Assembly (NCBI RefSeq): GCF_028368995.1
Contig: NZ_JAQNDL010000001.1
Coordinates: 544,001-608,000 of the forward strand
Direction: 5' to 3'
Source: Nannocystis bainbridge
GTDB taxonomy: Bacteria > Myxococcota_A > Polyangia > Nannocystales > Nannocystaceae
Length of the DNA: 64,000 nucleotides
The notes beneath the pieces are model-generated. The model saw only the letters and a program-made list of their open reading frames with translations, ran no database searches and was not told where the DNA came from. Positions 11,826 through 12,290 of the stretch are shown here, piece after piece. The position numbers and the translations under genes are program-made. Position 1 is the stretch's first letter. The number at the start of each line of letters is the position of its first letter.

Positions 11826-11919
11826 GAGCCTGCCTGAGAAACGCGCGGGCGAAGGCGCGGGGCCGTGGGGATCTGGTTGACGGCGGGCTCGGAGCGGCGG
11901 AGCGGGTCCCTTGTATGTT

Positions 11920-12290
11920 CCTCGCACGAGGTGAGCCCGACGCGGCGAAGCCTCCAGAACTTCGGGGAGGCCGAGGGTCCCTGGGGCTTCGAGCCCGGTA
12001 GCGAGTGTGGTCCCCCGAAGTTCGATCTCGATTTTTCTTGGATAATTGTGGGGCTGCGGACTCAAATCGGCCCCACCGCTGCCGGGTTCGTAAGCTGTCG
12101 TACCGCCGTTTCATCCTTCGCAGGGCGAGACTTCTCGGAGGACTTCGAGAGGCCGTGGGTCCCTGGGGCAGCGAGCCCGCGCGTGAGACGAGGCCCCGAA
12201 GTTCGAGTTTGACCTCAAGAGCCCGGACAACTGCATGAGCGTCAGCCAGCTCGAATCCTACAAGGGTGGGCGGTAGGTCAAGCGAAGCAA
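11920..12290 (+). ncRNA. Putative bridge RNA region: target loop 1 (11957-12023), target loop 2 (12140-12204), donor loop (12211-12279)
   Basis: Stems GAACTTCGGGG/CCCCGAAGTTC and GACCT/AGGTC. Guides GGGTCCCT, GTAGCGAG, ACAACTGC and TACAAG match the target flanks and donor ends. Transcript limits are unknown. Confidence 0.8.

Follow-up and report, generated by a model that had tools for sequence, protein, structure and literature searches.

Can the guide locus of a single insertion sequence serve two targets, or does a second target loop have some other part to play? This question is raised by a 64,000-nt stretch of Nannocystis bainbridge DNA (assembly GCF_028368995.1, contig NZ_JAQNDL010000001.1, positions 544,001 to 608,000; analyzed at its full length and referred to as the window), in which an IS110-group insertion sequence of 1401 bp occupies positions 11912-13312 of the plus strand. 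An earlier note on this DNA had placed in the left end of the element a bridge-RNA locus with two target-binding loops (TBLs) and one donor-binding loop, and had suggested that the two TBLs give the element a dual specificity or else record a loop duplication with reprogramming. Predicted folds, a covariance model and the matches between guides and flanks bear out both TBL-like loops and the single donor loop of this locus. The suggested dual specificity fared less well, as loop 2 is the better fit at only one of seven insertion sites, its predicted target is not enriched, its left guide is mutated in some lineages and a conserved handshake base is missing from it. With a probability of roughly 55%, we favor a reading in which loop 1 would be the working target guide and loop 2 would have an auxiliary or scaffold role.

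The element is an IS110-group insertion sequence of Nannocystis. The core dinucleotide CT flanks it at 11910-11911 and 13313-13314, and its ends are backed by the three copies in its own genome (G000; 11.05 Mb in 5 contigs, 71.5% GC), which have differing flanks and CT at both junctions (3/3), as have the two-ended copies (4/4) in G003, the genome of a sister species of Nannocystis (its copy L015: Nannocystis radixulma). The two further copies in the own genome, L002 and L003, each differ from the window copy (L001) by 4 substitutions, none of which falls in the loops. A non-coding left end of 413 nt, a right end extending 16 nt past the stop codon, a dinucleotide core and the lack of long terminal inverted repeats give the element the architecture of the IS110 group. 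Its sole long open reading frame (12325-13296, plus strand) encodes a recombinase of 323 amino acids with the Pfam domains DEDD_Tnp_IS110 (PF01548, residues 7-160, E 7.5e-23) and Transposase_20 (PF02371, residues 202-285, E 8.1e-18), and the protein scores 216.2 bits against the NCBIfam model NF033542 'IS110 family RNA-guided transposase', for which the cut-off is 140. It aligns over its full length with the solved ISCro4 and IS621 recombinases (E about 1e-32) and is identical to the ISCro4 chain at the D of GIDV, the E of EA(S/T), both D of KTDxxDA and the S of SG, which we take, from the work on IS621, to be the catalytic residues. In all respects except the second target loop in the guide locus, the element is an ordinary member of the IS110 group.

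All parts of the guide locus lie on the plus strand. A 5' leader (11912-11956) is followed by TBL-1 (11957-12023), a spacer of about 116 nt (12024-12139), TBL-2 (12140-12204), a 6-nt linker and the donor-binding loop (12211-12279), so that loop 1 stands about 187 nt upstream of the donor loop and loop 2 only 6 nt before it. In IS110 bridge RNAs, as described in the text of Durrant et al. (2024, PMC11208160), left guides have the sequence of the top strand, right guides are complementary to it and the core is included in both. The sequence GGGTCCCT occurs in the 64 kb only three times, all within 261 nt: at 11904-11911, where it forms the left target half-site GGGTCC with the core CT, at 11975-11982 as the left guide of loop 1 and at 12157-12164 as the left guide of loop 2. 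The right guide of loop 1, GTAGCGAG at 11998-12005, is the reverse complement of CTCGCTAC at 13313-13320, that is, of the core CT and the right target half-site CGCTAC, whereas loop 2 has CGCGTGAG at 12180-12187. In the donor loop, the left guide ACAACTGC (12227-12234) equals 13306-13313, which are the last 7 nt of the element (13306-13312) and the core C at 13313, and the right guide TACAAG (12259-12264) is the reverse complement of CTTGTA at 11910-11915 (CT and the left-end TGTA). Loop 1 thus matches the resident site at 8/8 positions on the left and 8/8 on the right, and loop 2 at 8/8 on the left with three contiguous pairs on the right, one of them G:U. All of the coordinates and guide matches of the earlier note were found where it had put them. 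As bare counts in the 64 kb, these 8-mers are not above chance (3 found, with 2.04, 1.79 and 0.91 expected); what goes beyond chance is their placement at the two boundaries of the element and at homologous positions of two stem-loops.

The two TBLs share one predicted fold, in which the basal stem is followed by an inner stem of 4 bp, a large internal loop containing the guides and an apical GGGC/GCCC hairpin (11984-11996 in TBL-1, 12166-12178 in TBL-2); 80-nt pieces have predicted fold energies of -39.0 (loop 1) and -33.4 kcal/mol (loop 2). Over 91 aligned columns, the two stem-loops have a mean column identity of 81%, and a covariance model built from 17 TBLs, with 13 consensus pairs of which 7 show compensatory changes, gives loop 1 a score of 69.9 bits and loop 2 a score of 78.5 bits. 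Differences between the paralogues are distributed unevenly, with 0/8 in the left guide and 6/11 in the right guide and handshake (p 0.018). Handshake refers to the two bases 3' of each right guide, which in the arrangement given in the text of Hiraizumi et al. (2024, PMC11208158) pair with positions 6-7 of the other DNA. The donor-loop handshake GG (12265-12266) is complementary to target positions 6-7 (CC). A target-loop handshake would be expected to pair with donor positions 6-7 (T, G), with which the TG of loop 1 (12006-12007; UG in the RNA) would form two wobble pairs and the AC at the handshake position of loop 2 (12188-12189) none. At the first handshake position (alignment A2), C is found in 10/10 single TBLs of relatives, T in 3/3 rows of loop 1 and A in 4/4 rows of loop 2. 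With a target loop (loop 1), a donor loop for the joined ends and guides that covary with the flanks across relatives, the locus has these sequence features of a bridge RNA, and because it departs from the rule of one target loop and one donor loop per locus it was filed as a bridge-RNA variant.

Comparison with relatives indicates where the additional loop came from. The relatives L006, L016, L095 and L096 (56-58% protein identity) and L189 (genome G005) share with the element the left-end terminus CT-TGTAT, the TBL scaffold, the donor loop with its guides and the right-end TTGAC; they differ in that their left end measures about 205 nt and has one TBL, placed 6 nt before the donor loop and with CA or CG as its handshake. 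In all five, the left guide occupies the equivalent place in the loop and agrees with the left flank of its own element; right guides agree with the right flank over 6 nt in L095 and over 5 nt in L096. As the single TBL of these relatives lies 6 nt before the donor loop and their terminus is the same, loop 2 has the 3' context of a single TBL (linker and donor loop) and loop 1 its 5' context (leader). When 94 sources were scanned with the covariance model, two full matches on the same strand were obtained in 8/8 copies of the element and two matches in L055, while 44 sources gave one match and 41 none; among 76 further sources, 38 gave one match and L104 gave two on opposite strands. Beyond this element, none of the relatives in these 170 sources has two same-strand TBLs in one left end, set against 82 single-TBL loci (L055 and L104 are explained otherwise, see below). 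Across 11 genomes of the genus, 6 matches were found in G000, 10 in G003, one each in G002, G008 and G005 and none in the other six. That the extra loop is a duplication specific to this lineage, as the earlier note had allowed, thus agrees with the single TBL of the relatives at 56-58% protein identity.

The two loops have been kept since. In G003, the element is represented by 3 full and 2 partial copies and by one remnant of its right end (84-94% DNA identity), and both loops are present in 5/5 of those possessing a left end, including L013, in which the spacer is further shortened; in total, both TBLs are present in 8/8 copies from two Nannocystis species. The earlier note had considered that homologous elements might lack the duplication, and among close homologues this is not what was found. 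One contig each from the public runs X2 and X9 also contains both loops: that from X2 has 83 nt over loop 1, then 85 unlike letters and then 12124-12671, and that from X9 spans 11953-12769 with 105 differences and 14 gaps. Among the contig pieces listed, none contains a junction at the termini of the element, and none gives a new insertion site; a metagenome scan gave no close copies, the best match having 58% protein identity. Judged from these alignments, the duplication is derived, lineage-specific and retained. One of the G003 copies, L012 (G003:C7:356616-357343), is a deletion derivative of 727 bp. About 646 bp of its recombinase gene are gone, but the two target loops, the donor loop and the right end remain, so that L012 may be non-autonomous.

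Which of the loops accounts for insertion was approached by scoring each copy's own loops against its own site, allowing G:U pairs, in the 7 copies for which both flanks were available. Contiguous right-flank pairs for loop 1 and loop 2, respectively, were 6 and 3 for the window copy (site GGGTCC-CT-CGCTAC), 3 and 5 for L002 (GGGTCC-CT-CGCGCC), 4 and 3 for L003 (GGGCCC-CT-CGCTCG), 4 and 3 for L005, 5 and 4 for both L009 and L011, and 8 and 4 for L012. Sorted by this fit, 6/7 sites go to loop 1 and 1/7 (L002) to loop 2; by total pairs out of 8, loop 1 is ahead in four copies and loop 2 in two (L002 and L003), with one tie. The left guide of loop 1 is constant in all lineages seen and matches the left flank at 6/6 positions in six copies and at 5/6 in L003 (GGGCCC). 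Its right guide varies by lineage, specifying CGCTAC, CGCTAA or CGCGAA, and the base specified for right-flank position 4 is the one actually present in 6/7 copies. This base is T for the window copy, L003 and L005 and G for L009, L011 and L012; only L002 deviates. Unoccupied members of the intergenic repeat in which the element resides read GGGTCC-CT-CGCCAC, -CGCCGC or -CGCGAC, each of them one mismatch away from loop 1. The view of the earlier note that loop 1 best explains the present insertion stands, given its 8/8 and 8/8 match and its longer right-flank pairing.

We favor the following course of events. The element would move by the bridge-RNA mechanism with an extended guide locus in its left end, in which loop 1 would act as the working target guide and the donor loop would pair with the joined ends ACAACTG-CT-TGTATG. 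Loop 2 would be a paralogue at the position of the single TBL, serving as an auxiliary or weak TBL or as a recombinase-binding scaffold joined to the donor loop. The distance of about 187 nt between loop 1 and the donor loop would be no obstacle, because, according to the text of Hiraizumi et al. (2024, PMC11208158), a synaptic complex of IS621 takes its TBL from one RNA molecule and its donor-binding loop from another, and the loops remain functional in vitro when separated. The identity and anatomy of the element, the matches between guides and flanks, the conservation and the evolutionary rates are observed directly. That the locus is transcribed, which loop the recombinase would choose and what part loop 2 may have are points that we infer from sequence.

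Less probable, and to be regarded as unlikely, is a natural multiplexed bridge RNA with two intact target loops that are both used, sharing the left half-site GGGTCC-CT and differing in the right half-site, which would be CGCTAC for loop 1 and CACGCG or CGCGCG for loop 2, so that two classes of targets would exist. Loop 2 is a complete TBL by its fold and by its model score of 78.5 bits, it is present in 8/8 copies and evolves below the synonymous rate, the differences between the paralogues are concentrated in the right guide and handshake (6/11, as compared with 0/8 in the left guide, p 0.018), and L002 pairs over 5 contiguous positions with loop 2 and over 3 with loop 1. This last match is weak evidence for loop 2, because CGCGC is common in a genome of 71.5% GC and follows comparable CT-CGC sites in about 9/22 cases among those listed, and L002 is the only one of the seven sites at which loop 2 is favored. 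The predicted loop-2 targets GGGTCCCTCACGCG and GGGTCCCTCGCGCG occur 0 times in the own genome, and a degenerate form of the target is found in 5 Nannocystis genomes at control level, with 3 matches compared with 2 for the reversed pattern. In L009, L011 and L012, the left guide of loop 2 is altered to GGTTCC, which mismatches all three of their own left flanks, in contigs of runs X2, X6 and X9 this guide has T in place of its core-pairing C, and loop 2 has no handshake complementarity. Loop 2 as a second specificity is therefore unproven. If it were true, multiplexing would enlarge the range of sites at which the element can land or allow two targets to be drawn together, and selection would have kept two loops since before the element lineages of G000 and G003 split (synonymous distance about 0.25).

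The rates at which the parts of the locus evolve bear on a further alternative, for which we would give somewhat poorer odds still, namely that loop 2 is what remains, without function, of the original TBL, whose role has passed to the upstream copy, and that it has yet to decay. Between the window copy and the G003 copies L005 and L009, respectively, substitutions number 2/67 and 4/67 in loop 1, 6/65 and 6/65 in loop 2 with 0 gaps, 4/75 and 5/75 in the donor loop, 4/45 and 4/45 in the leader, and 24/93 with 23 gap columns and 26/92 with 24 gap columns in the spacer. The recombinase gene has synonymous proportions of 0.208 (L005) and 0.223 (L009), with dN/dS of 0.23 and 0.19. The spacer does not differ in rate from synonymous sites (p 0.31), whereas loop 2 is slower than the spacer (p 0.012 and 0.004) and slower than synonymous sites (p 0.045 and 0.021), and still lower rates are seen in loop 1 and the donor loop (p 0.002 or lower). 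In favor of a relic, variable sites in loop 2 are about twice those in loop 1 (11 and 5 by hand count), two lineage groups have mutations in the left guide of loop 2, the basal stem is weaker in L005 and L013, the conserved handshake C is lost, and the scaffold of loop 2 is further than that of loop 1 from the outgroup TBLs, including that of L007 from another genus, from which it follows that loop 2 is the faster-evolving copy. A loop left to decay would not be expected to change at a rate of 0.092 when the spacer changes at 0.26-0.28 and synonymous sites at 0.21-0.22, nor to be free of indels next to a spacer with 23-24 gap columns. Its inner and apical stems are invariant in all copies, the changes being confined to guides, hairpin loop and basal stem, it is kept in every sampled lineage, and even in L005 and L013, with two basal pairs broken, the predicted fold persists at -30 kcal/mol. 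Taken together, these comparisons indicate that loop 2 is intact and under moderate purifying selection, evolving faster than loop 1.

In CazIS110-1, as far as the text of Sun et al. describes it (10.1101/2025.10.25.684509), a TBL-only RNA, present at about 10-fold the level of the bridge RNA, supports the first step of transfer, and the second step needs the full bridge RNA. A two-RNA system of this kind, in which loop 1 would be made as a separate TBL-only RNA and would cooperate, as in the 'direct transfer' of CazIS110-1, with a full bridge RNA composed of loop 2 and the donor loop, has that precedent, a fast-evolving spacer with a conserved block at about 12085-12115 between the TBLs and the canonical 6-nt linker between loop 2 and donor loop in its favor, but is improbable here, as a scan gave no promoter or terminator in the spacer, a gap of 9 nt separates the T-run after loop 1 from the stem, this run is not conserved in G003, and no RNA run containing the element was found.

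For the favored reading, with loop 1 as the working guide and loop 2 as auxiliary or scaffold, several results are unfavorable. The flank CGCGCC of L002 fits loop 2 better than loop 1 (5 and 3 contiguous pairs), at L003 loop 2 is ahead by total pairs of 8 (7 and 6), and the sites with both flanks are only seven, some of which may be related by descent. The rate tests consist of two non-independent comparisons of short segments, and they cut both ways: constraint on loop 2 argues against calling it unimportant, and the two basal-stem mismatches in L005 and L013 argue against strong constraint. The whole left end folds no better than shuffled sequences (z -1.21), and a scan of 11500-13700 against Rfam 15 (E up to 1) gave a chance microRNA match only and no bridge-RNA family, it being not established whether Rfam contains one. 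A promoter scan of the linear sequence 11700-13500 gave 0 promoters, and a search for RNA runs containing the element gave none.

Compared with known systems, the element is alike to IS621 and the IS110 group, as described in the texts of Durrant et al. (2024, PMC11208160) and Hiraizumi et al. (2024, PMC11208158), in its DEDD and Tnp recombinase, the long RNA-encoding left end, the CT core, the layout of guides that include the core, the donor loop that reads the joined ends, the handshake 3' of the right guides and the target in a genomic repeat. It is different from IS621 in having two target loops instead of one and a left end of 413 nt instead of 191 nt (PMC11208160), and in that the target is matched by the loop more distant from the donor loop. 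With CazIS110-1 (10.1101/2025.10.25.684509, text), the likeness lies in an excess of target-loop over donor-loop RNA and in the capacity of a stand-alone TBL to join transposition, whereas the TBL-only RNA described there is a truncated product of a single bridge RNA and the second TBL here is encoded in the DNA. The seekRNA of IS1111/IS110 elements is likewise, in the account of Siddiquee et al. (2024, PMC11187229), an RNA from a non-coding region that selects the target. ISPpu9 with ssr9 is also an IS110-family element with an extra RNA module, although, by the description in PMC12288879, ssr9 lies downstream of the recombinase gene, moves alone, is dispensable for transposition and is not a copy of a TBL. 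A full-text literature search returned no bridge RNA with more than one target-binding loop, whether described as two, second, duplicated or tandem; some may be contained in the model catalogues that supplement PMC11208160 and 10.64898/2026.10.21.760802. The text of PMC11208160 speaks of no third, additional or multiple loops and mentions duplication once, in an unrelated matter, and the text of the survey preprint (10.64898/2026.10.21.760802), with 86 bridge-RNA models varying in shape and guide length, mentions no duplicated target loop. A bridge-RNA locus with a second target loop is thus new in relation to the described natural systems that were found, which pair one target loop with one donor loop.

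To look for repeats within other left ends, the 600 nt preceding the gene were compared with themselves by blastn in 79 relatives, and repeats were obtained in 7 loci (one G003 copy, L020, L021, L055, L036, L041 and L045), those of L036 and L041 being located in the flanks. The Gemmatimonadales relatives L020 (1238-1360), L021 and L055 (1212-1400) have a near-perfect tandem repeat that reaches from the left-end terminus to the left guide and core. These repeats are like the present duplication in lying inside a bridge-RNA locus of the same clade and unlike it in being near-perfect and ending at the left guide and core, with no second complete and diverged TBL; they look like recent self-insertions into DNA that encodes the element's own left guide. 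In L104, two related elements stand head to head about 300 nt apart, at 880-1000 (minus strand) and 1300-1410 (plus strand), with one TBL each.

Bridge recombinases are under development as programmable genome-rearrangement tools. A two-loop element that has been kept for long offers a ready-made test of whether one recombinase and one locus can serve two targets, and a second testable question is whether a target loop is functional when far from the donor loop. A third is the natural reprogramming of guides, which in this locus takes the form of a duplication after which the right guide and handshake diverged. If loop 2 proved to be a mere scaffold or a slowly dying copy, the locus would still point to a likely route of IS110 retargeting, in which a loop is duplicated, function shifts to the new copy and the old one drifts.

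The spacer between the loops evolves at about the synonymous rate, has indels and is without detectable homology to the donor loop. That it might be a decayed donor-loop copy, left from the duplication of a whole bridge RNA, was considered and rejected, the local alignment score being below the mean of shuffled sequences for both the window copy and L005. The start of the spacer, CTTGGATAAT, and the left-end terminus, CTTGTATGTT, are alike at 7/10 positions by eye, which would hint at an origin by nested insertion that is not relied on here. No conserved promoter was seen in the spacer by eye, and a terminator scan of 11700-13500 gave one terminator-like site, inside the gene and on the minus strand. 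The leader, whose terminus is conserved in relatives, contains a candidate -10 box, TATGTT (11914-11919), and the right end a candidate -35 box, TTGACG (13293-13298, plus strand), recognized by eye; in a circle, the two would be separated by 18 nt, so that a promoter may form solely across the circle junction. TTGAC is found at the same right-end place in the G003 copies and in L095-L097. Upstream of the element lies a gene for a family-2 glycosyltransferase of 611 amino acids (9990-11825, plus strand). As the element begins 86 nt past the stop codon of this gene and in the same orientation, read-through from it into the guide locus is conceivable.

The intergenic repeat family in which the element resides (window 11840-11911 and 13313-13400) has about 8 copies of more than 200 bp, often located right after a stop codon. 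Members elsewhere in the genome are at C1:1956573-1956892, C1:1743871-1744048, C4:156542-156833, C4:157765-158046, C4:34478-34707 and C2:57092-57315, and a degenerate copy without the GGGTCC-CT site lies in the window at about 19642-19771 (minus strand; C1:563642-563771). In L183 (1500-1557; G003:C10:234393-234449), the last 57 nt of the element are fused to the left portion of a further target-repeat copy, with a right flank beginning CGCTAC; as an orthologous locus it was rejected, because the coding ends upstream are not the same and what the flanks share is the repeat family.

The G003 copies L009 and L011 show one difference in the left end (1/45 in the untranslated region), with leader, both loops, spacer and donor loop identical, and 51/972 differing positions in the gene; near-identical left ends next to divergent genes suggest recombination or gene conversion between these copies. 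In the metagenomic relative L097 (1340-1400), the 5' side is cut off inside the TBL, so that the similarity begins at the right guide and unrelated sequence stands upstream. In L007 (1474-1560; G028:C52), from another genus, a TBL resembling loop 1 precedes the first part of a donor loop, beyond which the similarity ends, and this locus is probably a fragment of a related element.

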